DNA of 32,000 nucleotides. It comes from Anaerovoracaceae bacterium (GTDB lineage Bacteria; Bacillota; Clostridia; Peptostreptococcales; Anaerovoracaceae). The translations under genes were made by a program, and so were the position numbers. Positions within the stretch are counted from its first letter, which is position 1, and every line of letters starts with the position of its first letter. The stretch covers positions 1,300,104-1,332,103 of the forward strand of contig OY781100.1 in assembly GCA_963676445.1 (NCBI GenBank), given 5' to 3'. This document shows positions 3,722 to 32,000 of this stretch, piece by piece. The notes under the pieces were generated by a model that saw only the letters and a list, made by a program, of their open reading frames with translations, was not told the DNA's origin and searched no databases.

Positions 3722-3743
3722 GCCCATTAGAATTTCACTTGAT

Positions 3744-3959
3744 TTACTTATCATTCAATTTTTTGCACCGTTCCAAACGCTTTCCAAATATAACACCAAG
3801 ATTAAACGCTTTTAATATGACATCAAACAAGCCTGATTGCGGAAATTCCTGGGCTATTAGAATTAATTCGTCGTTAGCTTCCAAGGGATATTTTTGCAGT
3901 TCTAAAATTCTTACAAGTGATTCTTTATTTGTTATAGATAGTACAGAGTTCTTACTCAT
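3744..3959 (-). CDS. Small hypothetical protein (71 aa)
   Basis: Strong RBS (AAGGGGGGG, about 6-nt spacer) before ATG 3959, followed by the hairpin at 3692..3721. No family recognised. Confidence 0.6.
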   Translation of the reverse strand: MSKNSVLSITNKESLVRILELQKYPLEANDELILIAQEFPQSGLFDVILKAFNLGVIFGKRLERCKKLNDK

Positions 3960-4170
3960 ATTTAACCCCCCCTTAAATAAAAGCTCCCGGATCTTTATTG
4001 ATACGGTAATATAAATATCCTGCTACACAAGGGCTGTTTTTTTTGTAAAAAAATGTCGCATAATAAAAAATAATATAGAATAACATTGAATCTTAGGCGA
4101 ATCCGCATTTATATATCGAAATCCAGCTTACAATGCTTATATGTGACCTCTTTGCTTTAATACGACAATT

Positions 4171-7783: not shown

Positions 7784-8820
7784 GGTGCCACCACCGTTAA
7801 TTCGATATCTGTTAATACAGGTATTTCATCCCCACTTAATAATATGTCATCCGTTCCAGAGTTCACTGTTAAGCTTCTAAGATCTGCTATAGAGGCACAA
7901 TCCAAAAGAGTGCTTCCGATTCTCATATAACTCACACTATTTTTTACATATGTAATTGATGCCAAATAATCCGCTACTGACTTTGCAGCATCGGTTGCTT
8001 CTGTGTATCCTTCAGCCAACGTGATATCTGCAGCTACCATTATGTTCTTCTGTGTGCCGCCTGTTACAGTAGCTTTACTTCCAATAGGCGCAGCCCCTTT
8101 TCCCAGCCCCGAAACGCCTGGATCTAGATATTCCTGAAATGCTGTTACTAAAGCTGCCTCTGCCGGTAAATACTGCCCATTGGTTATTGCAATTTTAACT
8201 GTATTCCCGCCATTCCAAAGAGGAAATACTTTTGCTGCTCCAATGCCTTTGAATGTGGCTGCCCATTCCAAATATTGAGCCACATTTCCCTCTTGCGAAG
8301 GATTAATTATATAAGCTCTAACGCGATCTCTTAAGGCATCATCCGTTTCTTCATCAGTTCCCGAGATAATAATATCCGCCAACAACGCAGTTACTCCGCT
8401 TACATTATCAATATTTTCAAGAGTACCGCTATAGGCGTTGCCAATCACACCTGGTTGCTCACATTCTGCACTATATACGTTCGTTGATAGGAATTGCTTA
8501 ATGATATAAGTTGTTTCACTCAACCCCCATCTCGTGCCGAGATTAACCGGAGCCGTTGTTTCGATTTTTCTCACTGCTCCAGTTGCGCTTTTTCGAGTTT
8601 TGCCGTAATCTGCAACCTTCTTATCCAGATAGACTCCAACAGCGGTATCCAAATAGAAAAGATCAGCATAATTGTTAAGATTAAAATATGTTTCTGCTAA
8701 TTTATATGCGCAGGGGGCAATGGCATCATAGATAATGCTGCCTTCCCGCTTATCGATATCGGAGTTCACCCTGCTTAGCATATCAGACAGGATGTTTTCA
8801 TAGGTCATTTCCTCAAACAT
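7780..8820 (-). CDS. Baseplate J-like protein (XkdT-like), second copy in module B
   Basis: 346 aa. Roughly 60% identical by eye over the first ~210 aa to the protein of 10951..11970 (MF..TYE..LSDMLSRV.SD.DKREGS.IYDA.APCAY.LA.TY.NLN...). RBS GGGGG before ATG 8820. Confidence 0.85.
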   Translation of the reverse strand: MFEEMTYENILSDMLSRVNSDIDKREGSIIYDAIAPCAYKLAETYFNLNNYADLFYLDTAVGVYLDKKVADYGKTRKSATGAVRKIETTAPVNLGTRWGLSETTYIIKQFLSTNVYSAECEQPGVIGNAYSGTLENIDNVSGVTALLADIIISGTDEETDDALRDRVRAYIINPSQEGNVAQYLEWAATFKGIGAAKVFPLWNGGNTVKIAITNGQYLPAEAALVTAFQEYLDPGVSGLGKGAAPIGSKATVTGGTQKNIMVAADITLAEGYTEATDAAKSVADYLASITYVKNSVSYMRIGSTLLDCASIADLRSLTVNSGTDDILLSGDEIPVLTDIELTVVAP

Positions 8821-10950: not shown

Positions 10951-11970
10951 TCACTCAGCCTCCGTTAGTGATATCATTCCAACAACCGGGATATCGGTAT
11001 CTTCAATGGTGATATTGGCAGTTCCTCCGTTAATTCGCAGCATATCATAATCTTGAACACCTGCCGTATCCAGCAGTAAGCTTCCAACCCTCGCGTAGCT
11101 GATAGAATAAGTAACAAATACGGTGCTCTTAAGGTATTCTTCAACAGAAGCTATAAATTCCGCTTGTACAGCGTTAAAAGTCTGTGATCCATTCAATAAG
11201 ACATTTGCGGAAACATTGATCGTCAGGCCAGAAGGACTGTCCACCTTGACTTCCGCCCCGATGGGCCTAACTGTTTCAATATAAGGAGCTACCGTGTCAG
11301 GTAAAGTTTCGTCAATTGTCATATCGCTGTCAACCACAAGAACTTTAACGGTTCCTGCTCCTCTCCAAAGAGGGATCACCTTTGCTTTTCCAACTCCGGG
11401 TACATCAAGTGCCCATTCTCTATAATTATCGGCATTACCTGATGTGCTAGGGGCTTGCACCCTCATATAGAATCTCTCTCTCAGCTTGCCGTCTGTTTCC
11501 TTTTCGGTACCGGCCGTTATAATATCTGTTAGAACAGCCGATACTCCGTTTACATTGTCTATATTTTCAAGCGTACCGTTATAGCCGTTCCCTATATCTC
11601 CCGGCTGTTCACAAATCGCTCGGTAGACATTGGAAGAGATCAGTTCTGTAACCTTATAGGTGGTATCACTTAAACCCCATCTGGTTCCGATGCTTACAGC
11701 TCCATTTGTTTCAATTTGCCTTATGGCAAAAGTCGCCGCTTTTCTGGTGATTCCGTAATCAGCCACGACCCGGTCAAGATATTCGCCCACTGCCGTATCA
11801 CCAAATACAAGGTCAAGAAAATGATTGAGATTGTAATAGGTCTGAGCAAGCTCGTATGCGCAGGGAGCTAAAGCATCGTAGATCACACTTCCTTCTCTCT
11901 TGTCCACATCGGATTTAACACGACTGAGCATATCACTTAGCAATCCTTCATAAGTTTTATCCGCAAACAT
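10951..11970 (-). CDS. Baseplate J-like protein (XkdT-like), first copy in module B
   Basis: 339 aa. Size, position after the XkdS-like gene and conserved N-terminal region are typical of the Baseplate_J family. Paralogous to 7780..8820 and, more distantly, to 28076..29122. Confidence 0.85.
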   Translation of the reverse strand: MFADKTYEGLLSDMLSRVKSDVDKREGSVIYDALAPCAYELAQTYYNLNHFLDLVFGDTAVGEYLDRVVADYGITRKAATFAIRQIETNGAVSIGTRWGLSDTTYKVTELISSNVYRAICEQPGDIGNGYNGTLENIDNVNGVSAVLTDIITAGTEKETDGKLRERFYMRVQAPSTSGNADNYREWALDVPGVGKAKVIPLWRGAGTVKVLVVDSDMTIDETLPDTVAPYIETVRPIGAEVKVDSPSGLTINVSANVLLNGSQTFNAVQAEFIASVEEYLKSTVFVTYSISYARVGSLLLDTAGVQDYDMLRINGGTANITIEDTDIPVVGMISLTEAE

Positions 11971-18135: not shown

Positions 18136-18552
18136 TTAAATATTGGTTGATGTTTCTGCTTGCTGCATATAAGTTATGTCTTCAGCTTTCATTTCTGAGT
18201 AGCTGATGTCAAAGGTTACATGCAGCACGTTTTCTGTGATTTGAGCATTTTTATTCCTGACCCGATACGCGCCTACCGCATTGAATGCCTTTAGTATCAT
18301 TTCCTGAACTCCGCAGCAATCTGCTCTGATTTCCGTTGTGGCTTTATCGCTGAAGTAGGCAAGGTCAAAGGATAATGTGCTCTGATATTTGGTATTCAGC
18401 TTTTTGCCGTATACCTGCTTGGTTATCATAATTAAAAAATAAGGCGCCGTGGAATCTGCAGGAGCACTCTCATCAAATACCTTGTAGCCGTCTGCTACGG
18501 GAAATAATGTGCTCAGCTTGTCCACGATCGCCTGTTTGACGTCGTTGATCAT
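18136..18552 (-). CDS. Tail completion / terminator-like protein (XkdJ position)
   Basis: 138 aa with RBS GAAGGTGA, directly upstream of the sheath gene. The assignment rests on position and size only. Confidence 0.45.
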   Translation of the reverse strand: MINDVKQAIVDKLSTLFPVADGYKVFDESAPADSTAPYFLIMITKQVYGKKLNTKYQSTLSFDLAYFSDKATTEIRADCCGVQEMILKAFNAVGAYRVRNKNAQITENVLHVTFDISYSEMKAEDITYMQQAETSTNI

Positions 18553-18694
18553 GTGTTATCACCTTCTTTACAAGTTCCGTTTAATACGAAACAACTTATG
18601 TCTAATCTAATGGCTAAGGATATGACATTCGAGGCGCCTCCTCATTAGCAACTAGTAACTATTATTCATCAATGTTTACTGCTGCTCTATCTAC

Positions 18695-19510
18695 TTAAAC
18701 ATTACGTAATTTTCGCAATTGCTCTTTCTCAGATTCAAATACTATTTTTCGGTCTTCCCCCAAAATCTCATCAATTTTGCTAAGTGATTCTATTAATTGG
18801 CCTAACTCAATAATGTTCAAACTTGCCAAATGATCTGACCCTGGTAACTGCTTATTTAATGTTATATGTCTTTCAATAATCTGAGCTCCTAGTGATTTTG
18901 CTACTAATGTAGGTAAGAATCCTTCTTCATGGCCGCTATAGCCGATTTTGTAATTAAAGTACTTTTCCTTCATAGTTACTATGTAGTTTAAATTCATTTC
19001 GCTGGTTTTACAGGGATAAGAGCTATTGCAATGAAGGATACCAACGAGATTATGAAGATTCTGAACAGCTTGAGATATTTCATACTCCGTGCTCATTCCG
19101 GTACTAATAATTACATCCATCCCATAAGAGTTCACTCGCTCTAGCAAATCGATATTAGTTATACAGGCACTAGGAATTTTAACGAACGGAATATCATATT
19201 GACCAATAAAGTTTAAACTATCGACATCCCAGACACTAGCGCTCCAAAGGATCGATTGTTCCTTACAAAACTTTTCTATTTCATCGTATTCCTTTTTCCC
19301 AAACTCAATCTTATGTCGGTAGTCAATATAGTCCATTCTTCCAAATATTGAATCCTTTTTAATATGCTTTTGGTCTTCTGGAACACACACTTCCGGACTC
19401 CGTTTTTGAAATTTAACAACATCAGCGCCGCATCGTTTAGCTTCATAAATTAATCTCTTAGCTATTTTCAAATCACCATTATGATTGATTCCTATTTCTG
19501 CTATAAACAT
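18695..19510 (-). CDS. NeuB-family (sialic/pseudaminic/legionaminic-acid-synthase-like) PEP-condensing enzyme lacking the SAF domain
   Basis: 271 aa. N-terminal FIAEIGINHNGDLKIAKRLIYEAKRCGADVVKFQKR is the classic NeuB/SpsE/PseI signature. The protein ends shortly after ..ERHITL...PGSDH.ASL.., with no room for the ~60-aa C-terminal SAF domain. It overlaps the upstream gene by 10 nt. Confidence 0.8.
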   Translation of the reverse strand: MFIAEIGINHNGDLKIAKRLIYEAKRCGADVVKFQKRSPEVCVPEDQKHIKKDSIFGRMDYIDYRHKIEFGKKEYDEIEKFCKEQSILWSASVWDVDSLNFIGQYDIPFVKIPSACITNIDLLERVNSYGMDVIISTGMSTEYEISQAVQNLHNLVGILHCNSSYPCKTSEMNLNYIVTMKEKYFNYKIGYSGHEEGFLPTLVAKSLGAQIIERHITLNKQLPGSDHLASLNIIELGQLIESLSKIDEILGEDRKIVFESEKEQLRKLRNV

Positions 19511-20172
19511 ACTCCTCTACTCTCCTTCTCGTACTTCCACTTGGCAAATTCATAATCTTCCTGAGTATCAACATCAATAGTCTCATCATTGGGAATAAGT
19601 AATGGCAAAAATCCATTCTTCAACATGTACCCATCCTCAAAGAACATATTTTTATGAAATATGTGAAAACAGTGTGCAGTCTGATAAAGTGGCTTAATCT
19701 CTTTTGTTGAAAGTCTTTTATAATCAATCTCATTTATAGCCTTTCCATTCTTTTCAATAATCCAGTTTTGTAAAAGCTTAACGCTGGTGGCATAATCGGC
19801 TTCGGATTGCTGAAATTGGTAGATAGCATTACAGATTGTTTCACGCTTCAAAAAAAGCAGGCAAGGGTTTAAGAACATCAAATGGGAATCTATGACCGTC
19901 TCTAAGTCACGAAAGATAAACGACAAAGGTCCTTCTGCTTCAACACTATCCTTGCTGCGCCAAATAATCTGTATATTCGAGTAACGTGCAGCAATTTCAC
20001 CAAGTTCAGTATCATAAATAAGAACATATCTATTGATATCTTCCGGCATACTATTAATTTTTTGACAAGCAATATCAAATAAACACGTCTCACCTATTGG
20101 TAAAATAAGTTTCCTTGGCAATCGCTCGCTTGTGAGTCTAGCAGGTAAAAACACTCCTATCTTCTTATTCAT
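19501..20172 (-). CDS. Cytidylyltransferase of the CMP-sugar synthetase / SpsF (CTP_transf_3) type
   Basis: 223 aa from ATG 20172, an 8-nt overlap with the radical-SAM stop. The track start at 20262 is an upstream extension. N-terminal IGVFLPARLTSERLPRKLILPIG matches the ARxGSxRLPxK loop of this family. Confidence 0.7.
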   Translation of the reverse strand: MNKKIGVFLPARLTSERLPRKLILPIGETCLFDIACQKINSMPEDINRYVLIYDTELGEIAARYSNIQIIWRSKDSVEAEGPLSFIFRDLETVIDSHLMFLNPCLLFLKRETICNAIYQFQQSEADYATSVKLLQNWIIEKNGKAINEIDYKRLSTKEIKPLYQTAHCFHIFHKNMFFEDGYMLKNGFLPLLIPNDETIDVDTQEDYEFAKWKYEKESRGVCL

Positions 20173-20983
20173 AACGAATACTATTCCTTCCCTGTGTATA
20201 TCTACCACCATTATGATTACAGTAATAGCACGGTGAGGCTTTATCATAAATACCCTTTTCACAATTATGCCGGAAAGTCGTTGCCTTTTGAGATTTTAAA
20301 ATATCTGTTAAAGAATTTTCATATAAATCCCCTATGATAAACGGTTTCTGTGTGTTGATGTCATTTCTGATATTGCAACAGGGGGAAACTGTCCCATCAT
20401 AATTGACTCCTACAAAATATGAGGGCTCTAAGCATTGACAATTCCTTTTTATCAAAGAATACTCCGGCAAGGTTCCCCCTCGGTCTGTAATCTTAGCTTT
20501 ATTATCTAGCCAGTCAACGAAATATAACATCTGTAAATCTCCTCGGTGAGCAAATATATATGGATATGCAATCTCATCAATGTCAGCACCCCAGGATTCT
20601 AATTGTTCGGCACACACTTCTACGCCCTTTTTGTCATAATCCATGATGGTTAATTCATTAATCAATAAGTTATCCAGCACTTCTATACACAAAAAATCGC
20701 CATTGGTATTGGTTATTAGTTTATTTCTTGGTAATATATGTTTAATCCGTTTCAATCTTTGCTTAAAAAGCTCTACATGCGAGAAAGGCTCATTGAATCT
20801 TGAAAAAGTTATTGCACCTTGATATTCATTTACTCGCAGTTCATATAGTAAAGATAATAAAATATCCTCTCCAAGTTCTATGTTCTCTTTTCTCCTATTC
20901 ACAAAACGGTTTGGGCACCAAAGACAAGTTCTATTACAATTTGAAAAAAGTTCGATTTCAATCAACCTTAAATTTTGTATCAT
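20165..20983 (-). CDS. Radical SAM enzyme with SPASM/twitch-like C-terminal cysteine motifs
   Basis: 272 aa. CNRTCLWC (CX3CX2C) at residues 16-23. C-terminal CX12GX4C (CLEPSYFVGVNYDGTVSPC) and CYYC. ATGA overlap with the upstream gene. Confidence 0.8.
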   Translation of the reverse strand: MIQNLRLIEIELFSNCNRTCLWCPNRFVNRRKENIELGEDILLSLLYELRVNEYQGAITFSRFNEPFSHVELFKQRLKRIKHILPRNKLITNTNGDFLCIEVLDNLLINELTIMDYDKKGVEVCAEQLESWGADIDEIAYPYIFAHRGDLQMLYFVDWLDNKAKITDRGGTLPEYSLIKRNCQCLEPSYFVGVNYDGTVSPCCNIRNDINTQKPFIIGDLYENSLTDILKSQKATTFRHNCEKGIYDKASPCYYCNHNGGRYTQGRNSIRYE

Positions 20984-21669
20984 AGCCTATTCACCGCCTT
21001 CCATTTAAAAAATGCCTCTTCCCCATTAACAAAATCAACGGGTTTTATCTGTCCATGATATTCAAATAATAGCCAGCTTAGATACATTGAATACCTAATT
21101 AAAATTTGATCTATTTCTGCAAGGTGATTTGTAGTAACATAGTATAATGATTTTCCAATTTTCTTAAAATCTGAAAAGCGATGTTTTGTTTTATAGAATC
21201 TTTTTATGTCGTTTTCTGGAAAAAATAGCTTCATGGCATATTGAGTTTTGAGCTCCTTTTGAGTAGCAAATCCTGTATTGATATCATCAATAATAACTGC
21301 CATAACCTTTCTGTTACTGTTAATGCTTTGGAGGGCATCATATCTATGCCCTCCTTCTTTTATTCGACCATCACGATAACAAATAAATGCCCAATACGTC
21401 CCGTTCTTTTCGATATCTTCTCCTAAAGATTTCAGAAACAAACCGGAGTTTATGAATCTATCATTATACACTTTGCTACGGTCTGTATAGTTACCACTAT
21501 ATCTCGGAAGAAGTTCTTTATAGTTGACATATTTCACTTCTGCTCGATAAGCTTTAATATATTCCAAAAGGTTCTCGAAGTATCCCAGATACAATTGAGT
21601 TACCTCCTGTACGGAGAAGTGTTCTTTCGTGAAATATTCTTGACCACAAATAGGATAAAGTTGTATCAT
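20980..21669 (-). CDS. Hypothetical protein with a possible ParB/Srx-like (ParBc) core
   Basis: 229 aa from ATG 21669 (RBS TAGGAGG). The track start at 21747 is an extension. The segment LKSLGEDIEKNGTYWAFICYRDGRIKEGGHRYDALQSINSNRKVMAVII aligns by eye to the ParB N-terminal pattern (..SI...G...P......I.DGHHR..A......). This is a weak call. Confidence 0.35.
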   Translation of the reverse strand: MIQLYPICGQEYFTKEHFSVQEVTQLYLGYFENLLEYIKAYRAEVKYVNYKELLPRYSGNYTDRSKVYNDRFINSGLFLKSLGEDIEKNGTYWAFICYRDGRIKEGGHRYDALQSINSNRKVMAVIIDDINTGFATQKELKTQYAMKLFFPENDIKRFYKTKHRFSDFKKIGKSLYYVTTNHLAEIDQILIRYSMYLSWLLFEYHGQIKPVDFVNGEEAFFKWKAVNRL

Positions 21670-21677
21670 AAAGCCTC

Positions 21678-21911
21678 CTATAAAATGATATTGCATTGGG
21701 AGCATTGACCCGAATCTTCTGGCATAATATAATGACATACAGGGCAATAAATTTTTCCATTCATCTCGGAATTAAGTATTGGATTTTCTGGAAGAGCAAT
21801 AATCTCTTCAAAGATATCGAAAGTATTTCCATACATTAATTCAGCGACTTCAAGTGACTCAGCAATGATTCGATTAACATACTCTCCATTTTTTTTTATT
21901 ATAACATTCAT
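21678..21911 (-). CDS. Small protein with C-terminal Cys4 zinc-ribbon-like motif
   Basis: 77 aa from ATG 21911 (RBS GGAGACAGG), 9 nt after the glycine-rich gene. C-terminus CPVCHYIMPEDSGQCSQCNIIL. The N-terminus (MNVIIKKNGEYVNRIIA) resembles those of small phage tail-cluster proteins. Confidence 0.6.
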   Translation of the reverse strand: MNVIIKKNGEYVNRIIAESLEVAELMYGNTFDIFEEIIALPENPILNSEMNGKIYCPVCHYIMPEDSGQCSQCNIIL

Positions 21912-21919
21912 CCTGTCTC

Positions 21920-22795
21920 CTATATATAATACCCAACGACAATAACACCTTGGCATCCATTACCACCTTTGGCTGAAACTCCGTTATAGAATCCCGAACC
22001 GCCACCCCCACCACCAGCTCCAAATTTGCTTCCATCGGAACCTTGATAAGCGGTCGTAGCACCCTCTCTTCCGGTCGGACCGTTTCCTCCAGTGCCTCCA
22101 CCACCAGCACCTCCCTTTCCTCCAGGATAAGGTATTGAATATTGCCCATCTGAATCAGAGTCACTTTCCCAGGCACCGCCCCCACCACCACCGCCACAAT
22201 AAACAGCACCAGTAAACGGATTAATACATGGAAAATAGTTTCCAAGCCCTCCAATTATATAGTGCCCATCAGAGGGTTCCATTAATCCATCTTCACCTTT
22301 GCCTCCTGTAATTCCACTTCCCCCATTTCCTCCTGCAGGATGTTGTCTTCCTTGATGTCCTCCACCACCTCCTCCCGTACCGCCTCTCGGTGCTCTATAT
22401 GATCGGGATCCTATATATTCATCTGGACTAGCCGAAGTAGGATTTCCTCTTCCTCCCAAAACAGAAACTGATCCTAAAGAGGTAGCCCCCCCATCAGTTC
22501 CGTAGTGCATATTCCCACCATAACCTGTTCTAGCTCCACCGATGCCTCCAGAACCTATAACAGCTGATAGAGTTTCACCTGACGTTACATTTATTCTATT
22601 AAACGAAGCATATCCGCCACCTCCACCAGGTCCTCCTGCATAAGTGCTGCCGCCACAACCGCCTCCTCCGCCGCCAACAAGGAATACATAAAGTTCACTC
22701 ACTCCGTATGGAACAGTAAATCTCCCTGAAGATGTAATTTCTACTGTCTTCAAAGCTTTAGTTCCGCCGCCGCCACATCGAATCATAGTAGTCAT
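21920..22795 (-). CDS. Glycine-rich (poly-G block) tail-associated protein
   Basis: 291 aa from ATG 22795 (TAATG overlap with the fibre stop, RBS GAGGGGGGA). The track start at 22855 is an extension. It has more than ten G-rich blocks (GGGGGGCGG, GGPGGGGG, GGTGGGGGG, CGGGGGGG, GGKGGAGGGGTGGNG...) separated by short beta-like segments, plus several Cys residues. Confidence 0.7.
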   Translation of the reverse strand: MTTMIRCGGGGTKALKTVEITSSGRFTVPYGVSELYVFLVGGGGGGCGGSTYAGGPGGGGGYASFNRINVTSGETLSAVIGSGGIGGARTGYGGNMHYGTDGGATSLGSVSVLGGRGNPTSASPDEYIGSRSYRAPRGGTGGGGGGHQGRQHPAGGNGGSGITGGKGEDGLMEPSDGHYIIGGLGNYFPCINPFTGAVYCGGGGGGGAWESDSDSDGQYSIPYPGGKGGAGGGGTGGNGPTGREGATTAYQGSDGSKFGAGGGGGGSGFYNGVSAKGGNGCQGVIVVGYYI

Positions 22796-24450: not shown

Positions 24451-27400
24451 CTATGATCCTCCCCTCAACTGCCCCCAGGTCAGTGGACCTTTTGGCATAA
24501 AATCTTCCGCTTCTTTTCCATCAAGCATGTCCGCGTTTAAATTCGAAACGACAGTGGGTGATTCTACGATCAGAGGAGCAGTCCCGGCGGCAGCGGTAGA
24601 TTCCAGCTGTGTTCCTTGAATCATGGCAGGGAAAAGCGCATTTTGATACACGTCCCAATAATATAGATGATCATGATACATCATTTTATTAGGTATAGTC
24701 CAAACATTTTTCCCAGTCAGTTTCAAGTGGCTGATTGACTGCTTCTGTGTATTTGAGCTTTTAGCCAAATCCATATCATTGAAAGTGTTGCTTGTGGAAC
24801 AAGTCCGGAATGTAAAGCGGCGATTCCAAAAATTCCCGCTTTGACTGGTACTTCCACCAAATGTCTCGCCAGGCATGGAAAGGAAGTTCCCGCCGGACCA
24901 TCCTCTTAAAAATGCTTCCCTTTCAGTAATCCAAGTGTTAGGAGCCGCTCCGGTTGCGCGTTCCACTTTCATATAGATTCTATCATTGACTGAACTACAA
25001 AAAATCCATCCAGCATCCAGCTGGCAGTACCTTTCTGCAGACAATACATTGGCAGAATTCCAGTAGCTGTACCTATCCGTTTCTATCGTTTCTTCAGGCA
25101 CGCTATATCGCATTGCAGTAATAGTAAGACGCATCATGCAATCTGAACTTCTGACACCATTTTTGAGTGGAATTGCAACGATCGGCCTCTGACCAGTAAA
25201 CAACATCGTTTTGTTCATATCGCTGATACCGGCATCTGTCCAAGTCATACCGGCATCTGTTGAGACTTCGATTATGATTTGTGAAGCAGGAAGAAAGGCA
25301 GTACGATCCGCCCTCAATACATCAAATAGGGGTGCCGCCGTCTTTGTAATACCCCCTGTAACATATGCTGGTTCGCTTAACTTATCCGTCGATACACCGG
25401 TAATTGTACCGCTGTCATGCGTATGTATGCTTGGAGTAAAAGTATCAGGTTTGTTGCTCACACCGCTCCAAGGCACATTGTCTGCTGCCACCGCTGCGTT
25501 AACCTTGCCATCCTCATCTGTATCGTAGATCGACCGAAGCATATCTCCATATCCGGCATCAGACAGTTCTTGCTGTACAAAGGCTGTACTTGCCGCCTGT
25601 GTTGTATTTGTCCCGGAAGTTGCCGTCGGAACTGTCGGTATCCCGGTAAATGAAGGGGAAGCCAGGGAGGCTTTTGCTGCCAGTGCAGTATTTAAGACAT
25701 ACCCCTGATAGGCGCTTAGTGCTGTGCCATCTGCATGGGAGGATTGTGTTAATGCATTGATCGTCTTTACATGCCCATAATTTGCCGCAGTGCCAAACCC
25801 ATACGTACCGGATGTAGCCGCATGGGACTTTATCGCTTTTGCGTCCAGCTGTGTCTGTACGTTAGCTGTAACCCCGTCCATGTAGTTTAATTCCGAAGCG
25901 GTGGCATTCAGTCCTAAGTTTGTAAGTGCTCCTGAGGCCGTTGCAGCTCCGGTTCCACCATTCGTTACTGGTAATGCGCCGGTTGTGTTTCCAAGACCCA
26001 GTGCATTCCTTACGCCTGCGCCTGTCGTTTGGCCGGTGCCGCCCTCGGATATCGTCAGAGTTGGGTTACTTCCTGACGTTACAAGCCCTTTCGCGTTTAC
26101 GGTTACACTACCATAAGTACCTGCGGCTACCCCGCTGTCTGTCAAAGTAAGGCCAATTTCTGCATCTTCAGAACCGTCAAAAGATGTTTCTCCCGATGCA
26201 TCTCCGGTTACGCTGATCGTTCTGGCAGTTTTAAGTTTGACTGCCTCCTCCGCGGTATTTACAATCCCATCCTCATCTGTATCGTAGATCGACCGAAGCA
26301 TATCTCCATATCCGGCATCAGACAGTTCTTGCTGTACAAAGGCTGTACTTGCCGCCTGTGTTGTATTTGTCCCGGAAGTTGCCGTCGGAACTGTCGGTAT
26401 CCCGGTAAATGAAGGGGAAGCCAGGGAGGCTTTTGCTGCCAGTGCAGTATTTAAGACATACCCCTGATAGGCGCTTAGTGCTGTGCCATCTGCATGGGAG
26501 GATTGTGTTAATGCATTGATCGTCTTTACATGCCCATAATTTGCCGCAGTGCCAAGCCCATACGTACCGGATGTAGCCGCATGGGACTTTATCGCTTTTG
26601 CGTCCAGCTGTGTCTGTACGTTAGCTGTAACCCCGTCCATGTAGTTTAATTCCGAAGCGGTGGCATTCAGTCCTAAGTTTGTAAGTGCTCCTGAGGCCGT
26701 TGCAGCTCCGGTTCCACCATTCGTTACTGGTAATGCGCCGGTTGTGTTTCCAAGACCCAGTGCATTCCTTACGCCTGCGCCTGTCGTTTGGCCGGTGCCG
26801 CCCTCTGATATCGTCAGAGTTGGGTTACTTCCTGACGTTACAATCCCTTTAGCGTTTACTGATATGCTTCGGTAAGTACCGGCTGCTGCTCCGCTGTCTT
26901 CCAGTGCAATATCAATTGATGCATCCGCACTGCCGTCAAAGGATGCAGAACCGGTAGCATCTCCGTTTATGCTTATGGTCCGGGCCGCAGTCAATTTGGC
27001 GGCGCTTGCCACGCTCTTATCCGTATCTGCTATATTGTCGCAATTTCCCAGGCCTACTTGTGATTTTGTAATATTATGAGGATTTGAAGTATTATTGGTA
27101 TGGCTTGCCAGTGTGGATAAATTTGCTGTGATTTGAGCCTGTAGCTTGCCTATTGCAGACAATGTGGTATCCGTCGCGGCAATAGCGGTATCAGCTACTG
27201 TACTCAAACCAGTAAGTACAACCGTTCTTACCGTGGCCGCAAAATCTGATATCGTGGATGCGGTCTGCATGCCAGTATGGTTAGCCCTGTTCCGATCGGC
27301 AGAATGATAGTGCAGGCTTGTATCGGCTGATCCCGTCAGTAATCCGGCATTTGTGTCGGGTATGTTGTTGACTTCAGCTCCTGCCTCTATGCCGGTCAGT

Positions 27401-28074
27401 TTTGTTTTTTCTTCGCTCGTATAGTCCTCTGTACTTAAATCTTTACCCGTTACTTTGTCAACTTTGGCTGCAAGCTGAGTCGTCATTGTACCGGCAAAGT
27501 CGGAATCGTCATTCAAAGCACTCGCTATCTCTTGCAATGTATCCAATGCATCCGGAGCGGCGCCGACTACTTCTTCGATTCTGGCATCTGTCTCCCCTTT
27601 CGTATAGGTATCTTCCTTATCGGCTTTCAGGAGCAGCCTGGTTGCAACGGATATTTCATCCGCCTTGGCGGTCTCAACTGTAGTTACACGACTTTCTATG
27701 CTATTTAATTCTGTGTTATTACTCGCCTCATACGCATCAAGCTCATCCTGAGCGGCGGATACCGCGTCCTGAAGGGCGTTTATATCGCTCGCCTCGACAA
27801 TATCACCAGCGGTCTGATAAGTAATGTATATGGTATCCACGCCTGCATACACCTTGATGTAGGTCTTCCAGGAGGCCTCACTGTCAGTGGACAACGCAAA
27901 AGAAGTTATCTCATCTCCGGTATATTTGCTGCCGGTATAAACAGCTACCGAACTGCCCGTTACGTTGTCATGCTCCAGATATCCGGCATATACACCTTCT
28001 GTGACTGTCTGGATTTCTTCAATCACATAGACACTGCCATCCTCTTTTTTATTGAGTTTTCCCACAAATGCCAC
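24451..28074 (-). CDS. Giant tail fibre / receptor-binding protein with internal 253-aa tandem duplication
   Basis: About 1207 aa from GTG 28074 (GGAGG 6 nt upstream, 2 nt after the baseplate-J stop). ATG 28122 from the ORF track would overlap baseplate J by 47 nt. It has a coiled-coil N-terminal third, two 253-aa repeats and a distinct C-terminal ~330-aa domain. Confidence 0.8.
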   Translation of the reverse strand: MAFVGKLNKKEDGSVYVIEEIQTVTEGVYAGYLEHDNVTGSSVAVYTGSKYTGDEITSFALSTDSEASWKTYIKVYAGVDTIYITYQTAGDIVEASDINALQDAVSAAQDELDAYEASNNTELNSIESRVTTVETAKADEISVATRLLLKADKEDTYTKGETDARIEEVVGAAPDALDTLQEIASALNDDSDFAGTMTTQLAAKVDKVTGKDLSTEDYTSEEKTKLTGIEAGAEVNNIPDTNAGLLTGSADTSLHYHSADRNRANHTGMQTASTISDFAATVRTVVLTGLSTVADTAIAATDTTLSAIGKLQAQITANLSTLASHTNNTSNPHNITKSQVGLGNCDNIADTDKSVASAAKLTAARTISINGDATGSASFDGSADASIDIALEDSGAAAGTYRSISVNAKGIVTSGSNPTLTISEGGTGQTTGAGVRNALGLGNTTGALPVTNGGTGAATASGALTNLGLNATASELNYMDGVTANVQTQLDAKAIKSHAATSGTYGLGTAANYGHVKTINALTQSSHADGTALSAYQGYVLNTALAAKASLASPSFTGIPTVPTATSGTNTTQAASTAFVQQELSDAGYGDMLRSIYDTDEDGIVNTAEEAVKLKTARTISVTGDASGETSFDGSEDAEIGLTLTDSGVAAGTYGSVTVNAKGLVTSGSNPTLTISEGGTGQTTGAGVRNALGLGNTTGALPVTNGGTGAATASGALTNLGLNATASELNYMDGVTANVQTQLDAKAIKSHAATSGTYGFGTAANYGHVKTINALTQSSHADGTALSAYQGYVLNTALAAKASLASPSFTGIPTVPTATSGTNTTQAASTAFVQQELSDAGYGDMLRSIYDTDEDGKVNAAVAADNVPWSGVSNKPDTFTPSIHTHDSGTITGVSTDKLSEPAYVTGGITKTAAPLFDVLRADRTAFLPASQIIIEVSTDAGMTWTDAGISDMNKTMLFTGQRPIVAIPLKNGVRSSDCMMRLTITAMRYSVPEETIETDRYSYWNSANVLSAERYCQLDAGWIFCSSVNDRIYMKVERATGAAPNTWITEREAFLRGWSGGNFLSMPGETFGGSTSQSGNFWNRRFTFRTCSTSNTFNDMDLAKSSNTQKQSISHLKLTGKNVWTIPNKMMYHDHLYYWDVYQNALFPAMIQGTQLESTAAAGTAPLIVESPTVVSNLNADMLDGKEAEDFMPKGPLTWGQLRGGS
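25508..27025. repeat. Tandem direct repeat, 2 x 759 bp, inside the giant fibre gene
   Basis: 25508..26266 versus 26267..27025. The first ~576 nt of each unit (25508..26083 vs 26267..26842) differ at only 2 positions I could find (25797 a/g, 26047 g/t). The remaining ~180 nt are clearly homologous but much more diverged. The twin plus-strand shadow ORFs at 25901 and 26660 are offset by exactly 759. Confidence 0.95.
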
Positions 28075-28075
28075 A

Positions 28076-29122
28076 TCACACCTCCAGATCGACTGTGCCG
28101 AATACAGGTACTTCCTCGTCACCCAATCCGATATTGGACGTATCGCTATTTAGCCGCAAATCATCATAATCTAAAACCCCGTCTGTACCCAGCAAAAGGG
28201 TTCCTATTTTAGCTACGCTTATATAAGTTGCATCAAAGGCAATCTCTTTAAAATAATCCGTTATAAACTGAGTAAAGGTGTCCGTTACCGTCTGTAATAT
28301 ATACCCGGAGGCCAATGTAACAGAAGCGGTAATATCAATGTTCTTTGCTGTACCTGAAACAACCGTTACTGTGGCTCCTATCGGCCTCATTTCTTCAATA
28401 TATTTTTCTGTTGCAGTAACCAAGCTTTCCGCCACCGGCTGCTTATCGCTGTCCACAATAACAACTTTTACGGTACCGTTACCCTTCCAAAGTGGAAATA
28501 CTTTGGCTCCTCCTACGCCGTCCACCGCCAGAGCCCATTGTCTGTAGTTTGCTATGTTTCCCGATGTCGCCGGTTTTTGCAGATAATCATAAAGTCTTGC
28601 GATTAGTGCAGCGTCGGTTTCCTCATCCGCTCCCCCTGTTGCAGCCGCATTGGTTACTGACGTAAGCCCGTTTATCGTTATCACCTGATAAAGGATCGTT
28701 CCTGCATCGACATTATACTCATCACCGATCTCTGCTGCCGTTGCGCTTACCGAAACAGTACCCTCTGAAATGGTTACGGCCTTGTCGGTTTCAAATTGCA
28801 GACCATCCGAAGTTAAAAATACTTTACCTGCGGCGATTTGCGTATTATTTGCGCCTGTGAAGGTTAACATAGTCGTTGCCTTCGACCCCGATTTCCGCGT
28901 GATGCCGTACTCCGCACACCTCTTGTCAATATATTCTCCAGAAGTCTCATCAACATAGGCGATGGGAACAATCGCGTCAATGGCTTGATAATATTTCCAC
29001 ATTTCATAGGCCACAGCACTGATCATATCGTTTGTGTAGCTTCCTTCACTGGTATTGAGTTCACTGCTCAGTTGACTAATGATGTTATTTTTAATCATTT
29101 CTACCGTATAGTCCTCATACAT
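28076..29122 (-). CDS. Baseplate J-like protein (XkdT-like), module A
   Basis: 348 aa. Follows the XkdS-like gene with an 8-nt overlap. Shares the family pattern (..EGS...D...A.A.E.......ID......D...G..ID....EYGITRK...A...) with the two module-B copies but is much more distant from them. Confidence 0.85.
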   Translation of the reverse strand: MYEDYTVEMIKNNIISQLSSELNTSEGSYTNDMISAVAYEMWKYYQAIDAIVPIAYVDETSGEYIDKRCAEYGITRKSGSKATTMLTFTGANNTQIAAGKVFLTSDGLQFETDKAVTISEGTVSVSATAAEIGDEYNVDAGTILYQVITINGLTSVTNAAATGGADEETDAALIARLYDYLQKPATSGNIANYRQWALAVDGVGGAKVFPLWKGNGTVKVVIVDSDKQPVAESLVTATEKYIEEMRPIGATVTVVSGTAKNIDITASVTLASGYILQTVTDTFTQFITDYFKEIAFDATYISVAKIGTLLLGTDGVLDYDDLRLNSDTSNIGLGDEEVPVFGTVDLEV

Positions 29123-29537
29123 TCACTTCCACCTCCCCGTAAACTGTATTCAGCTTCGCATTCACGTTCAATATCCCGTCGGAGAAAGATATCGCCGTAT
29201 CAGAAACACTTGTAATATACGGGCAGACAAGCAGGCATTCCTCTACATAACGCGCTGCCTCCGACTGCTTTAACTCCTCTGAAAAAGGTTGTCCAATCAA
29301 TGAATCCACTTCATTTCCATAATCCCACGTATAGATTTCATGACGGAATCTGGGTGTATGAAGTGCCTTCCACGCCCATACAAGTACTGCTTCTTTCCCA
29401 GAAACAACAACTGGTGATCCGTTTTTATAGACCGGGATATTATTTTCAAAATCCCATTTTGCTTCTTTAAAAATGGAGAGTTCCATCCCATCCTCCGCCA
29501 CCTGCGGTTGAATGATCGGAAAAAGTGTCGCATTCAT
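29115..29537 (-). CDS. XkdS-like (DUF2634, gp25/W-like) baseplate protein, module A
   Basis: 140 aa from ATG 29537, an ATGA overlap with the upstream stop. The track start at 29555 is also possible. Order and size match xkdS. Confidence 0.6.
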   Translation of the reverse strand: MNATLFPIIQPQVAEDGMELSIFKEAKWDFENNIPVYKNGSPVVVSGKEAVLVWAWKALHTPRFRHEIYTWDYGNEVDSLIGQPFSEELKQSEAARYVEECLLVCPYITSVSDTAISFSDGILNVNAKLNTVYGEVEVNV

Positions 29538-29791
29538 ACGTCCACCACCTTGCAAATGATTATATATCGCTGCTCCTCTTCAATGGGAATCAGAAGCAAC
29601 GTTTCTCCTGCATTAAATTCATACAAACTGCTGTTTTTTAAAAGAGAATCTTTATCCTGAATGGTCTGAGAAACATTAACCGTTAATGGTGATGCAGTAA
29701 TGACCTCTCCCAACCGCATAAATGTCGGTATTTGTTTTTTTGCTTCTGTCCTTATGCCCCTTACCAGGGAAACGAAAGGATTATCTTCCAT
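29534..29791 (-). CDS. XkdR-like (DUF2577) small baseplate protein, module A
   Basis: 85 aa from ATG 29791 (AGGAG about 9 nt upstream). ATG 29809 (ATGA overlap) and 29797 are alternative starts. Order and size match xkdR. Confidence 0.55.
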   Translation of the reverse strand: MEDNPFVSLVRGIRTEAKKQIPTFMRLGEVITASPLTVNVSQTIQDKDSLLKNSSLYEFNAGETLLLIPIEEEQRYIIICKVVDV

Positions 29792-29805
29792 TCTCATCAC
29801 TCCTC

Positions 29806-30813
29806 TCATCCCGCTGTTTTCGAGCCGTTTGCGTTAACAAGCTTACCGGCGTCTTTTTCATCCATCAAGTTTTGAAAATTGAGAATCAGTTTATTATAAT
29901 ACTGGCCGTTTTTCCAGGTATGAACATCACCGTCGATATAAAAAAGGCCGTATAAACCTGTATATGGTTCTTGAACGACAACAGCGCCACCTGCCATATT
30001 TGCTGAATTTCCAAGGTTTTCAACGGTAATTTTCTGTAAAACACCATTGTCTTCCAGTATTTTGTTTGCCTCAGCCGTTGCATCCTCATTATCAGCCTGC
30101 CTCAGATAACTTTGCAAACGTCCATAAAGCGCAATCGATTCGCTGTTATTCGGCGTTCCAACCAGCTTGTCCTTTGAATTATAGATGCTGACTTGATTGA
30201 TCATATTTTCAATGCTTTCCGTTGTCGATGCCGACATAAGGTTGCTCCCCGCCGAGATGACCATCGTCTCGTAGGGGACGCCTTTTTCAATGACATCAAG
30301 TTCAAGACCACGAAATCGGATCTGGTATTTCTTCCCTGTGCTGTTTGAGGCTATCGTATAAGCAGTTTGAATCATACGGTAAAGATCAACGCCAATAAAG
30401 TTTCTGTTGACTTTTACCCCTGTTGCCGCCAGATTGCCCACTGTTATTCCAAAATCAGCGCAGATTAATTTTGTGATCGCTTCAGGTGTCCAATTCTTAA
30501 ATTTATATACGGCTTCATTTCTTTTTAAATAAATTCCATAGTCGAAACAGGTGATATTAGTCGTGCTGCTGTCTGTACTTTTATGACGGTTAAAGATCAC
30601 TCCGCTGAACAGGACACGATCCTCTTGTTTCAGCGTAACTCCGTTTCCGAGTTCACAGTTTACGACAGGAATGGTGCCATCGACAGGTGACGACAGGATT
30701 CCAAATTCCAAAGTCCTTGTACATTGCTGGTAATCACCTGAAAGCGTAATAGAAGGTACGAGCTGAGTAATGTCAGTTGTACCATTTTTACTTGTAATTG
30801 ACAGTGTTATCAT
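29806..30813 (-). CDS. XkdQ-like baseplate hub protein, module A
   Basis: 335 aa from ATG 30813 (AGGAG about 10 nt upstream). The track start GTG 30822 lies too close to that RBS. Follows the LysM protein. Confidence 0.7.
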   Translation of the reverse strand: MITLSITSKNGTTDITQLVPSITLSGDYQQCTRTLEFGILSSPVDGTIPVVNCELGNGVTLKQEDRVLFSGVIFNRHKSTDSSTTNITCFDYGIYLKRNEAVYKFKNWTPEAITKLICADFGITVGNLAATGVKVNRNFIGVDLYRMIQTAYTIASNSTGKKYQIRFRGLELDVIEKGVPYETMVISAGSNLMSASTTESIENMINQVSIYNSKDKLVGTPNNSESIALYGRLQSYLRQADNEDATAEANKILEDNGVLQKITVENLGNSANMAGGAVVVQEPYTGLYGLFYIDGDVHTWKNGQYYNKLILNFQNLMDEKDAGKLVNANGSKTAG

Positions 30814-30826
30814 AACGAGCACACTC

Positions 30827-31468
30827 CTATGTAAATAAACTTTTATCTGGAATTTTTACAACCTGTCCCGGATAGATAAGATTGGCATTTTTGATTCCGT
30901 TGTAATCTGCCAGCTTGGCGTATAAGGATGAATTGCCGTACATGTCACGACAAATAGCACTAAGCGTATCACCAGATTTTACAGTATAGGTTTTCGGTTT
31001 TGCTGATGCCGAATCGGTGCTTCTTGCATTGTTTTGTGTTCCTGTAGAAGGGCTCGTCACAGTTGCGAGCGTTCTGTATTTTCTCAGGGAAATGGTCGCA
31101 TACACATCCTTCGTTCCGTCCTTCTCACCATAGGAGATATCCTCGATCAGGACCGGCACATTCACCATCGTATCGGAGACGATGAAACGCAAAACTTTTC
31201 TTGCATCGCACCATGCCTCAAGGGCCTGAATGTATTTATATGGATCGGAATAAATGAGATTATGTACAAACGAATAATTTTGAGCGGGGAACATACAGTC
31301 AATTTTAAAAGAGCACAAGGTACCGTAACCGGCAAGATTTACATCTCCCAGTGTATGGATATTGATCGTCTCTATTTTAATGCCATGGGACACATTGAAA
31401 CTGCCCGGTGTGACAGGAAGAACAATTTCCGTGTTGTCAGCCGGATCTCTGAATATAAATTTACGCAA
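30827..31468 (-). CDS. LysM-domain tail protein (XkdP-like), module A
   Basis: 213 aa with a TTG start at 31468, supported by GGGAGGGG with a 6-nt spacer. C-terminal LysM: YTVKSGDTLSAICRDMYGNSSLYAKLADYNGIKNANLIYPGQVVKIP. Confidence 0.85.
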   Translation of the reverse strand: MRKFIFRDPADNTEIVLPVTPGSFNVSHGIKIETINIHTLGDVNLAGYGTLCSFKIDCMFPAQNYSFVHNLIYSDPYKYIQALEAWCDARKVLRFIVSDTMVNVPVLIEDISYGEKDGTKDVYATISLRKYRTLATVTSPSTGTQNNARSTDSASAKPKTYTVKSGDTLSAICRDMYGNSSLYAKLADYNGIKNANLIYPGQVVKIPDKSLFT

Positions 31469-31485
31469 ATTCGACCCCTCCCATC

Positions 31486-32000
31486 TTATGAAGCCATGAC
31501 CATACGGGCCTTCTCAATTTCACCGAACAATGCTCTTGCAATCTTATTGATATCCGCCTCTTCTCTTACAGTAAAATTATTTCCTGTAATGGTAACGCCC
31601 GACCCACTTCCGTAGCCGCGATTTTCACTTGCGGTAAGCACCCGCTCTCCTTCATGGAGCAGTGCGGGGAAATTGTTGTAAGGTACGTAGCCTAGGCCGT
31701 AAGCGTGTGCTTTAGACGACGATGTCAATTTGCCTGTTGAAGTATTTTCCTTATACGGAATGCTGTAACCTCCGTACGTTGGATAAAACTGAGCCATTGG
31801 ATTGTTCTGCACTGATGCCATTCCTTTGGTCAGTTCATTTTTTATCTCATATACATTTTCCCAGCCAGCTTTGGAAATTTCTGCTGACTTCTGCAAGTTT
31901 CCAATTAAAGCCTCATTCGAATCCTGTTCTATCTGTGCAGGCTCACTACCGGCATAAACATTTGTTGCAAAAGCTTCTGTAGCTTCAAGAAGTTCCTGCA
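31486..32000 (-). CDS. Tail tape-measure protein, C-terminal part (5' end outside the window), module A
   Basis: The frame stays open from the window edge (..QELLEATEAFATNVYAGSEPAQIEQD..) through the listed 136-aa ORF. The C-terminal ..HAYGLGYVPYNNFPALLHEGERVLTA.. motif is typical of tape-measure C-termini. It lies directly upstream of the LysM gene. Confidence 0.75.
   Translation of the reverse strand, partial: QELLEATEAFATNVYAGSEPAQIEQDSNEALIGNLQKSAEISKAGWENVYEIKNELTKGMASVQNNPMAQFYPTYGGYSIPYKENTSTGKLTSSSKAHAYGLGYVPYNNFPALLHEGERVLTASENRGYGSGSGVTITGNNFTVREEADINKIARALFGEIEKARMVMAS

Follow-up and report, generated by a model that had tools for sequence, protein, structure and literature searches.

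Two described systems are among the closest to the genes considered here. The ketodeoxynononic acid (Kdn) route, known from Bacteroides thetaiotaomicron (BT1714, a Kdn-9-phosphate synthase) and Prymnesium parvum, leads from mannose 6-phosphate and phosphoenolpyruvate (PEP) through Kdn-9-phosphate and Kdn to its cytidine monophosphate (CMP) ester, CMP-Kdn (PMC6200933). The prophage proteins EpaA and EpaB of Acinetobacter baumannii retailor a nonulosonic acid without a transferase of their own and change the surface polysaccharide (PMC12053666). Phage-borne sugar-nucleotide genes and the retailoring of nonulosonic acids by prophages are, in other words, already known. Here, we describe a five-gene cassette in a 32,000-nucleotide (nt) stretch of the genome of an Anaerovoracaceae bacterium (contig OY781100.1 of assembly GCA_963676445.1, positions 1,300,104 to 1,332,103; hereafter, the window). 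At the junction of two contractile-tail modules, this cassette encodes a small Cys4 protein, a ParB/Srx-fold protein, a BtrN-like radical S-adenosylmethionine (SAM) enzyme, a cytidylyltransferase, and a NeuB-type synthase. We propose, with a probability of roughly 0.55, that the five genes form a mobile cargo cassette of phages and tail particles of anaerobic Bacillota, in which the anaerobic synthesis of a CMP-ulosonic acid is tied to receptor recognition.

A NeuB-family synthase and a cytidine triphosphate (CTP)-dependent synthetase are common to the cassette and the CMP-Kdn pathway, and many relatives of the cassette also carry a haloacid dehalogenase (HAD)-type phosphatase and a cupin, which would fit that route (PMC6200933). 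In contrast to the pathway, the window's copy lacks the phosphatase and the isomerase, and the cassettes add a BtrN-type radical SAM enzyme and a ParB/Srx protein and are borne by phages or tail loci. EpaA/EpaB resemble the cassette in being phage carried, in combining a CTP_transf_3 domain with oxidoreductases, and in depending on host transferases (PMC12053666). However, they modify an existing host sugar through dehydrogenase and aldo-keto reductase domains and have no NeuB-type synthase, radical SAM enzyme, or ParB-like protein. What appears to be new is the fixed association of a BtrN-type radical SAM enzyme, a ParB/Srx protein, a NeuB-type synthase lacking the SAF domain, and a cytidylyltransferase, together with its linkage to fibre genes. 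We found no precedent for it: the literature yielded no description of this gene combination or of its linkage to fibre genes, in agreement with a preliminary description of this DNA, made from the sequence alone, whose author knew of no such tail-embedded module. The chemistry of the cassette is likely to be new as well, and the cassette probably affects how particles meet cell surfaces.

The five genes run on the minus strand from 21911 to 18695 (Table 1), and almost all of the window is transcribed in that direction. The cassette starts 9 nt past the stop (21920) of a glycine-rich tail gene. An 8-nt gap with a ribosome-binding site separates genes 1 and 2, and the later genes overlap by an ATGA (genes 2 and 3), by 8 nt (genes 3 and 4), and by 10 nt (genes 4 and 5); a 142-nt spacer follows before the tail-terminator gene (18552). 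The open reading frame (ORF) list and direct reading bore out the gene calls and junction lengths of the preliminary description. We found no intrinsic terminator after the cassette on its own strand and no convincing promoter before gene 1, where promoter-like matches numbered 24 against a shuffled expectation of 17.2 ± 4.5. As far as the gene arrangement indicates, the cassette would be translationally coupled to the late tail operon. For gene 2, a 255-amino-acid (aa) ORF starting at TTG was rejected as an over-extension; homologues begin at an internal methionine (MIQLYPI), giving 229 aa, and the DXP_synthase_N Pfam match of the longer ORF (E = 0.0075, below the cut-off) was dismissed as chance. 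Pfam and NCBIfam profile searches of the window's cassette found no glycosyltransferase, dehydratase, aminotransferase, or epimerase, as had been noted before. The G+C content is 34.5% in the cassette, 48.7% in the glycine-rich gene, 45.3% in the upstream tail module, and 42.2% in the downstream tail module; the base-composition contrast reported previously is real, but the flanks lie at 42 to 51% rather than near the 55% then given.

The synthase encoded by gene 5 matches Pfam NeuB (PF03102) over profile positions 1 to 240 of 241, with 230.7 bits (cut-off, 22.1; E = 2.3e-68). In canonical NeuB, PseI, and LegI, the sugar pocket is completed by a C-terminal SAF (antifreeze-like) domain. The window's 271-aa protein stops after the barrel and has no SAF match, and all 35 members of the family in the fetched loci are only 207 to 296 aa long. 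Its best match in the PDB, 6ncs (290 aa; E = 6.6e-38), is SAF-less as well. Residues K33, Q35, K111, S114, S136, S192, H194, and H215 align with K53, Q55, K129, S132, S154, S213, H215, and H236 of Neisseria meningitidis NeuB, in which H215 and H236 bind the metal and K53, K129, S132, S154, and S213 bind PEP. The gene 5 product is thus predicted to be a PEP-dependent ulosonic-acid synthase of the NeuB family. It does not reach the NCBIfam equivalogs (NeuB, 231.8 against a cut-off of 399.65; PseI, 164.9 against 340.25), so its product should not be called N-acetylneuraminic acid or pseudaminic acid.

The gene 4 product appears to be a CTP-dependent, CMP-ulosonate-synthetase-like enzyme related to PseF, KdsB, and NeuA. 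Pfam CTP_transf_3 matches only its N-terminal part (25.1 bits; cut-off, 22.6), and the NCBIfam PseF model aligns to residues 8 to 215 (E = 4.5e-10), with KdsB models matching too; all stay below the equivalog level (PseF, 39.5 bits against a cut-off of 205.7; the KdsB models also far under theirs). An N-terminal motif, P-A/G-R-x-x-S-x-R-x-x-x-K, is nearly invariant in the family, as is a C-terminal DVDT (D-I-D-T in one member). The former corresponds to the CTP-binding motif P-A/G-R-x-x-S-x-R-x-P-x-K of NeuA, KdsB, and PseF; R12, S15, R17, and K21 do not vary across the aligned family, and P10 and P19 occur in at least 90% of the sequences. The PDB entry 6oew is a weak match (E = 0.005). This entry and 6ncs are structural-genomics structures for which we know of no defined substrate; both proteins are chromosomally encoded, whereas the cassette is phage-borne.

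The radical SAM enzyme (gene 3) contains a CX3CX2C motif and a SPASM-type domain (Pfam SPASM, E = 1.1e-11). Eight cysteines are invariant in its family, namely C16, C20, and C23 of the SAM cluster and C184, C202, C203, C252, and C255 of the auxiliary region. Four of the latter five align in the profile alignment with the ligands of the auxiliary [4Fe-4S] cluster of BtrN, and the arginine of an invariant R168-G-G aligns with the substrate-site arginine of BtrN. A profile built from 23 members retrieved BtrN from the PDB (4m7t; E = 7e-34; residues 6 to 257), followed at about 1e-3 by the peptide epimerase YydG. Foldseek likewise placed BtrN first for the AlphaFold2 (AF2) model (predicted local distance difference test [pLDDT], 90.9), with an E value of 1.4e-15, template modelling (TM) scores of 0.65/0.71, and 244 aligned columns; EpeE, the twitch dehydrogenase SpeY, and viperins ranked next. 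PADLOC gave a marginal viperin match and nothing else, and PHROGs gave a marginal radical SAM match. The likeness to BtrN (butirosin) and SpeY (spectinomycin) therefore extends over the full length in both sequence and structure, including the CX3CX2C motif and four auxiliary cysteines. The identity to BtrN is nevertheless 25%, no aminoglycoside biosynthesis genes lie nearby, and the partners are ulosonic-acid enzymes and tail genes; the aminoglycoside-cluster setting of BtrN, whose substrate is 2-deoxy-scyllo-inosamine, is not matched. These comparisons suggest a BtrN-type "twitch" dehydrogenase with one auxiliary cluster that probably works like BtrN and is not a butirosin enzyme. By analogy with BtrN and SpeY, it would be expected to turn a secondary alcohol of a carbohydrate-like small molecule into a ketone without oxygen or NAD.

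SPASM-domain radical SAM enzymes are typically peptide maturases, and a second account would have this enzyme, perhaps with the ParB-like protein as its partner, mature a tail protein or the Cys4 protein in the style of ribosomally synthesized and post-translationally modified peptides (RiPPs) or of anaerobic sulfatase-maturating enzymes, with the sugar genes as unrelated cargo. We consider this improbable. The second-best structural match is indeed the peptide epimerase EpeE/YydG, but BtrN is far better and aligns over the full length (7e-34 versus 1e-3 in the profile search; 1e-15 versus 9e-7 in Foldseek), and there is one auxiliary cluster, as in BtrN. A small cysteine-rich ORF does head the operon in the closest relatives; however, the radical SAM gene is linked to the cytidylyltransferase and NeuB genes in 33 loci, most of which lack the small ORF. 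Maturation of tail proteins, one of the hypotheses raised in the preliminary description, is likewise disfavoured by the BtrN-like character of the enzyme and by the sugar-phosphate isomerase and phosphatase genes of the relatives.

The small ORF itself encodes a 77-aa protein ending in a Cys4 zinc-ribbon-like motif (CPVC...CSQC). Searches of Pfam, NCBIfam, PHROGs, and PADLOC gave no match. Homologues with 34 to 41% identity occupy the same position only in the closest relatives (loci L094, L001, and L097), and most cassettes have none. A reading of this ORF as a RiPP was rejected on that ground.

The gene 2 product has no Pfam (including ParBc), NCBIfam, or PHROG match. Its family (cluster c3) contains the (D/E)-G-x-H-R nucleotide-binding motif with a preceding glycine that is typical of the ParB/Srx fold: G90 and G106-x-H108-R109 are invariant, and E105 occurs in at least 90% of the sequences. 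The family profile matched ParB in the PDB (4umk; E = 0.005); SerK and SbnI, serine kinases of the ParB/Srx fold, were weak matches. The AF2 model (pLDDT, 78.7; predicted TM score [pTM], 0.80) was matched by Foldseek to pNOB8 ParB-N (5k5d; probability, 0.97) and, in BFVD, to dozens of viral ParB/Sulfiredoxin proteins (probability, 1.00; about 88 residues). A ParB/Srx fold, as the preliminary description had guessed, is thus borne out by the profile search against the PDB and by Foldseek but not by Pfam ParBc; altogether, all four of its fold assignments are confirmed by profile or structure searches. The resemblance is limited to a core of about 88 to 90 residues; the remainder has no recognized relative, and the C-terminal half is modelled as alpha/beta. 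No match to the helix-turn-helix DNA-binding domain of partition ParB was found outside this core, and the protein is not a partition protein. A k-mer-seeded search yielded only 4 and then 8 relatives, and an exhaustive hidden Markov model search was used instead; it placed 316 representative clusters in the family among 1.84 billion proteins. Members occur in 32 of 40 loci, nearly always directly upstream of the radical SAM gene, and the two genes are often co-duplicated; L061 and L080, for example, each have two copies of both.

Nucleic-acid hypermodification was another hypothesis of the preliminary description. ParB-like proteins are involved in DNA modification (DndB and DpdB), and with a fold match to ParB, the decoration of DNA by a ParB-like DNA binder, the radical SAM enzyme, and a CMP-sugar must be weighed. 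We regard it as highly unlikely. Neither the window nor the 5.8 kb upstream of the first tail module in a sister genome (see below) contains capsid, portal, or terminase genes, which implies that no DNA is packaged; the phage-borne cassettes lie among late fibre and lysis genes and not in a replication region; and, as noted above, no helix-turn-helix match was found outside the core.

A search for the radical SAM family covered viral contigs and 185,579 species-representative genomes and yielded 42 viral and 50 genomic loci. Of the fetched loci, 33 combine radical SAM, cytidylyltransferase, and NeuB homologues; most are IMG/VR viral contigs, and the genes almost always stand in this order (L070 and the L071/L072/L083 group depart from it). 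The full typical order is ParB-like gene, radical SAM (one to three ORFs in the radical SAM cluster), cytidylyltransferase, optional HAD and/or cupin genes, and NeuB. In cassette loci, the radical SAM homologues are 32 to 62% identical to that of the window; more distant relatives (19 to 30%), mainly from Actinomycetota and Myxococcota, showed no linked NeuB or cytidylyltransferase gene. Only 6 of the 185,579 species representatives contain close copies, all on contigs of metagenome-assembled genomes (MAGs), one of which is too short to reach NeuB; the neighbours are phage-like where enough flanking sequence exists. No contig exactly matched the window's NeuB or radical SAM protein, and the comparison of strains was made via the tube and LysM proteins, which recur unchanged in other assemblies and are common to sister strains. 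When the region was compared by blastn with 50,697 phage records of GenBank, the sole match was 137 nt long and at chance level, and none of the PHROG families covers the NeuB-like, cytidylyltransferase-like, ParB-like, or small protein.

The cassettes occupy a recurrent position in phage genomes. Among ten sampled loci, the gene directly upstream falls in the tail category of PHROGs in five (mostly tail fibre) and is an endolysin and a minor head protein in one each; holin or endolysin genes lie downstream. The upstream fibre types are diverse (glycine-rich, collagen-like, and others). Within 5 kb, 133 neighbour gene clusters were found, whose recurrent Pfam families are baseplate J, T4 gp15-like sheath stabilizer, Gly_rich_2, lysis, and DNA-ligase families, and some cassette contigs carry T4-like neck and sheath-stabilizer genes. 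Neighbourhood mining, which the preliminary description had suggested, therefore shows that the core genes recur in 33 loci, usually after tail-fibre and before lysis genes. One 203,584-bp viral contig (IMGVR_UViG_3300033747_000022) carries two different copies near its ends (L063 and L080), with radical SAM proteins 39% and 36% identical to that of the window and, in L080, two ParB-like and two radical SAM genes; it may come from a jumbo phage that has paralogous cassettes, or its assembly may be circularly permuted.

Many relatives insert further genes between the cytidylyltransferase and NeuB genes, namely a cupin of about 110 aa (PF01050 MannoseP_isomer, E = 3.7e-14) and an HAD-type protein of about 100 aa with a DxDGT motif, whose Pfam matches are weak and below curated cut-offs. 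By motif counts, the HAD gene is present in about 24 of 40 loci and the cupin gene in about 15. The window's cassette has just the synthase and synthetase of the CMP-Kdn set, and both accessory genes are also missing from its closest relative (L094/L052); most relatives, including the allele of the sister genome (L097), carry one or both. By analogy, the cupin and HAD genes point to a Kdn-type route. In L074 to L079 (e.g., L074:11770-12468), a 232-aa protein without a Pfam match (cluster c10) stands in place of the HAD and cupin genes, together with two radical SAM paralogues, and this group looks like a different tailoring branch.

Comparison with near-identical strains shows that the cassette is exchanged as one unit with the glycine-rich fibre gene. 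In blastn alignments of the window with the sister genome (L097/L099), identity is 95 to 99% up to 22766 and from 18593 onward, with no similarity in between. The upstream breakpoint with L097, at 22766, lies inside the glycine-rich gene, so that the exchanged unit comprises the body of this fibre gene and the cassette (4.2 kb in the window; 5.3 kb in L097). The proteins of the two alleles are 24 to 44% identical, and both alleles have about 35% G+C. The glycine-rich protein aligns weakly at both termini with the tail fibre of cyanophage Pam3 (7yfw; E = 0.016; low-complexity bias), and we infer that it is a receptor-binding tip. Four states of the slot between the first-module fibres and the second-module terminator were observed: that of the window; that of L097, with a different glycine-rich gene, two ParB-like genes flanking the small Cys4 gene, and radical SAM, cytidylyltransferase, HAD, cupin, and NeuB genes; that of L096, with a beta-helix fibre, a 401-aa glycine-rich protein, and three tiny ORFs but no cassette; and that of L095, with a 311-aa protein followed directly by the terminator and again no cassette. 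In the more distant L094, the same block of fibre, glycine-rich gene, and cassette closes the last fibre set and is followed immediately by the M23 peptidase and holin genes. The L096 slot also contains about 1.1 kb (L096:7387-8504) with just 30- to 51-aa ORFs and no similarity to cassette proteins, which may be what is left after decay or some other small cargo.

The low G+C content, the divergent alleles within near-identical flanks, and the absence of the cassette from two further strains support horizontal acquisition, as surmised from base composition in the preliminary description. That description had also named a scenario that would undo its reading, in which ordinary host DNA for capsule or flagellin glycosylation is trapped between two independent prophages. 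The deviant G+C content and the position between two tail modules, which is borne out, would fit this scenario, yet it is contradicted by the evidence and is the least probable of the accounts considered here. No att-like or direct repeats, tRNA genes, or integrase remnants were found at the edges of the cassette or of the exchanged segment; the tail modules abut directly in the cassette-free L095 and L096; both modules belong to one head-less locus with common regulators and lysis genes; and viral contigs, at a fibre/lysis junction, are almost the only place in which close homologues of the cassette were found.

In the pathway that we propose, the SAF-less NeuB-type enzyme would condense PEP with an aldose, and the cytidylyltransferase would turn the resulting ulosonic acid into its CMP ester. 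The aldose is probably mannose 6-phosphate or a related sugar phosphate, because relatives of the cassette add a mannose-6-phosphate-isomerase cupin and an HAD phosphatase; for the minimal cassette of the window, host enzymes would supply the isomerase and phosphatase steps. The radical SAM enzyme would abstract a hydrogen beside a hydroxyl group, oxidizing a secondary alcohol to a ketone and passing the electron to the auxiliary cluster. The predicted product is a CMP-activated, Kdn-type 3-deoxy-2-ulosonic acid with one secondary alcohol oxidized. Given their adjacency and co-duplication, the ParB/Srx protein may be a nucleotide-dependent partner of the radical SAM enzyme, acting as a kinase in the manner of the serine kinases with this fold or holding the cytidine-nucleotide substrate. 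Coupling to the late tail operon and exchange as a unit with the glycine-rich fibre gene suggest that the sugar most likely ends up on a glycoconjugate relevant to adsorption, which would be either the particle's own fibre tip or, via host transferases, the receptor glycan of the producer; in the latter case, released particles would not be lost on producer cells and debris. The cassette encodes no transferase, and its genes therefore do not establish the acceptor. Of the hypotheses of the preliminary description, the one in which a CMP-activated acidic sugar serves fibres, the particle, or the host surface remains the best reading.

The two destinations are sub-cases of this proposal, and each is put forward tentatively. 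If the CMP-sugar feeds host transferases and alters a receptor glycan (S-layer, wall polysaccharide, or flagellin glycan), fibre and cassette would act like a specificity-immunity pair. The swapping of fibre gene and cassette as one unit is consistent with such self-protection of the producer surface, as is the lack of an encoded transferase, and EpaA/EpaB provide a precedent in which a capsule nonulosonic acid is retailored via host transferases (PMC12053666). However, a cassette that is coupled inside a late tail operon, and for which no separate promoter was detected, would be expressed only in cells about to lyse, and on the T4-like contigs lysogen immunity would be irrelevant if, as we assume, those phages are virulent. 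In the other sub-case, which is no less tentative, the sugar would be placed on the glycine-rich tip or another tail protein during assembly, by a host enzyme or an unrecognized transferase (possibly the ParB/Srx-like protein), changing binding or stability. The predicted co-transcription with tail genes, the constant adjacency to fibre genes in unrelated phage types, and the occurrence in apparently lytic T4-like contexts fit particle decoration, and so does the exchange with the fibre gene. Against it, no transferase fold was recognized, the ParB/Srx protein follows the radical SAM gene and not the CMP-sugar genes, and the upstream fibre types differ so widely that a single acceptor is unlikely. 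Late-operon coupling, placement beside fibre genes in unrelated phages, and T4-like contigs favour a role during particle production, whether tip decoration or receptor masking on the dying producer, whereas the missing transferase and the EpaA/EpaB precedent favour host transferases and hence modification of a cell-surface glycan.

Several points weigh against the proposal of an adsorption-related CMP-ulosonic acid as a whole. The enzyme roles are assigned by homology, and the nature of the sugar, the position that is oxidized, and the sequence of steps are deductions. The isomerase and phosphatase are missing from the window's own cassette, and the NeuB and cytidylyltransferase proteins score so far below the equivalog cut-offs that their substrates may differ from any known nonulosonic acid. 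A keto-ulosonic acid without a follow-up aminotransferase or reductase would be chemically unusual. Expression with late genes only fits poorly with the protection of surviving kin, and the absence of a transferase fits poorly with fibre decoration; no recurrent glycosyltransferase was found among the 25 most frequent of the 81 families in the 133 neighbouring clusters, although singleton transferases beyond those could escape such a count. Finally, the fibre-lysis interval is a general hot spot for phage cargo, and position alone may not mean a functional link.

A bolder version is speculative and rather unlikely. The ParB/Srx protein and the radical SAM enzyme would constitute an unrecognized two-enzyme tailoring step that converts a Kdn-like sugar to a new keto- or phospho-ulosonic acid, and the CMP-activated product would be put on the co-inherited fibre tip, possibly by a transferase of new fold, making fibre plus cassette an exchangeable specificity module.

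Table 1. Features of the cassette, its slot, and the surrounding tail locus (window coordinates)
Feature	Position	Strand	Description or evidence
77-aa Cys4 protein	21678..21911	-	cassette gene 1
229-aa ParB/Srx-fold protein (cluster c3)	20980..21669	-	cassette gene 2
272-aa protein, probable BtrN-type radical SAM dehydrogenase	20165..20983	-	cassette gene 3
223-aa CMP-ulosonate-synthetase-like cytidylyltransferase	19501..20172	-	cassette gene 4
271-aa SAF-less NeuB-type synthase	18695..19510	-	cassette gene 5
Glycine-rich tail-fibre protein, 311 aa	21920..22855	-	Gly_rich_2, E 1e-10; phrog_863 (tail category)
Strain-variable segment (glycine-rich fibre body + cassette)	18594..22765	.	blastn homology lost between 18593 and 22766
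Tail-terminator gene, first of second module, downstream slot edge	18136..18552	-	Phage_tail_terminator_8, E 7.8e-20; same position in L095-L097
Tail genes before cassette		-	distal half of PBSX-like contractile module: LysM, YqbQ, DUF2577, sheath initiator, baseplate J, 1223-aa fibre, Gp48, 344-aa fibre, glycine-rich protein (Pfam)
Complete second module after cassette		-	tail terminator, sheath, tube, XkdN-like chaperone, tape measure, LysM, YqbQ, sheath initiator, baseplate J, Gp48, fibres (Pfam)
Third set		-	baseplate-J/Gp48/fibre (Pfam)
Lysis end		-	M23 peptidase, 70-aa holin-like protein, 109-aa membrane protein; then CotH-family gene (Pfam)

The surrounding locus is complex in its own right. 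A 3.6-Mb contig of the sister genome (L099) is 99% identical to window positions 26063 to 32000, and its first module opens with its own tail terminator, sheath, tube, chaperone, and tape measure genes. Ahead of that module lie an Xre-type repressor, small ORFs, and a sigma-70 region-4-like protein; host genes (Y-family polymerase and SRAP) lie beyond these. First- and second-module paralogues are 22 to 38% identical and thus do not derive from a recent duplication; the two modules are complete and distinct. With tail and lysis genes but no capsid, portal, or terminase, the locus is classified by gene content as a head-less tandem contractile-tail (tailocin/PBSX-like) locus, bordered by regulators on one side and by lysis genes on the other. 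Contractile-tail and lysis genes without head genes are likewise combined in R-type tailocins and PBSX-like defective prophages. Tandem tail clusters are familiar from the adjacent R- and F-type pyocin genes; here, in contrast, both modules are contractile, a third baseplate-J/Gp48/fibre set is present, and a sugar-nucleotide cassette stands at the junction. The host is placed among strict anaerobes by the tube-protein cluster, in which Anoxybacterium hadale (Clostridia, Anaerovoracaceae) is represented.

The baseplate-J proteins of the second module and the third set, a pair encoded at 7780-8820 and 10951-11970, are 50% identical, and each is 33 to 38% identical to that of the first module, which suggests that the third set arose from the second lineage and perhaps provides alternative fibres for one tail. 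The 1223-aa fibre gene (24451-28122) contains an internal 759-nt tandem duplication (25478-25777 versus 26237-26536, 96% identical); the sister genome has 607-aa and 181-aa genes at this position, so that fibre length varies among strains. An 878-aa CotH-kinase-family protein (281-2917) with long C-terminal repeats adjoins the lysis end and is at least 90% identical in sister strains. Between the lysis genes and the CotH gene (3000-4100), the G+C content is low (32 to 37%), and there are short unsupported ORFs without family matches. The double or triple tailocin-like arrangement in an anaerobe of the Clostridia (window 4171-32000) seems to merit study in itself.

Phage sugar genes that change surface glycans decide who is infected or killed, which matters for phage therapy, engineered tailocins, and serotyping. 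The cassette would represent a compact, oxygen-independent route to an activated acidic sugar that travels with receptor-binding genes across many phages of anaerobes, and natural strains with two alleles or none at the same slot provide ready-made controls. If its product decorates the particle, the cassette would add a new layer of host-range determination, and attachment to the fibre tip, if true, would be the first case in which a receptor-binding protein of a phage or tailocin is glycosylated with a sugar of the nonulosonic type. If the product instead remodels the producer surface, the cassette would be an immunity-like partner of the fibre. In both cases, BtrN-type radical enzymes would gain a new class of substrate, and the ParB/Srx fold would acquire an enzymatic function in sugar metabolism.

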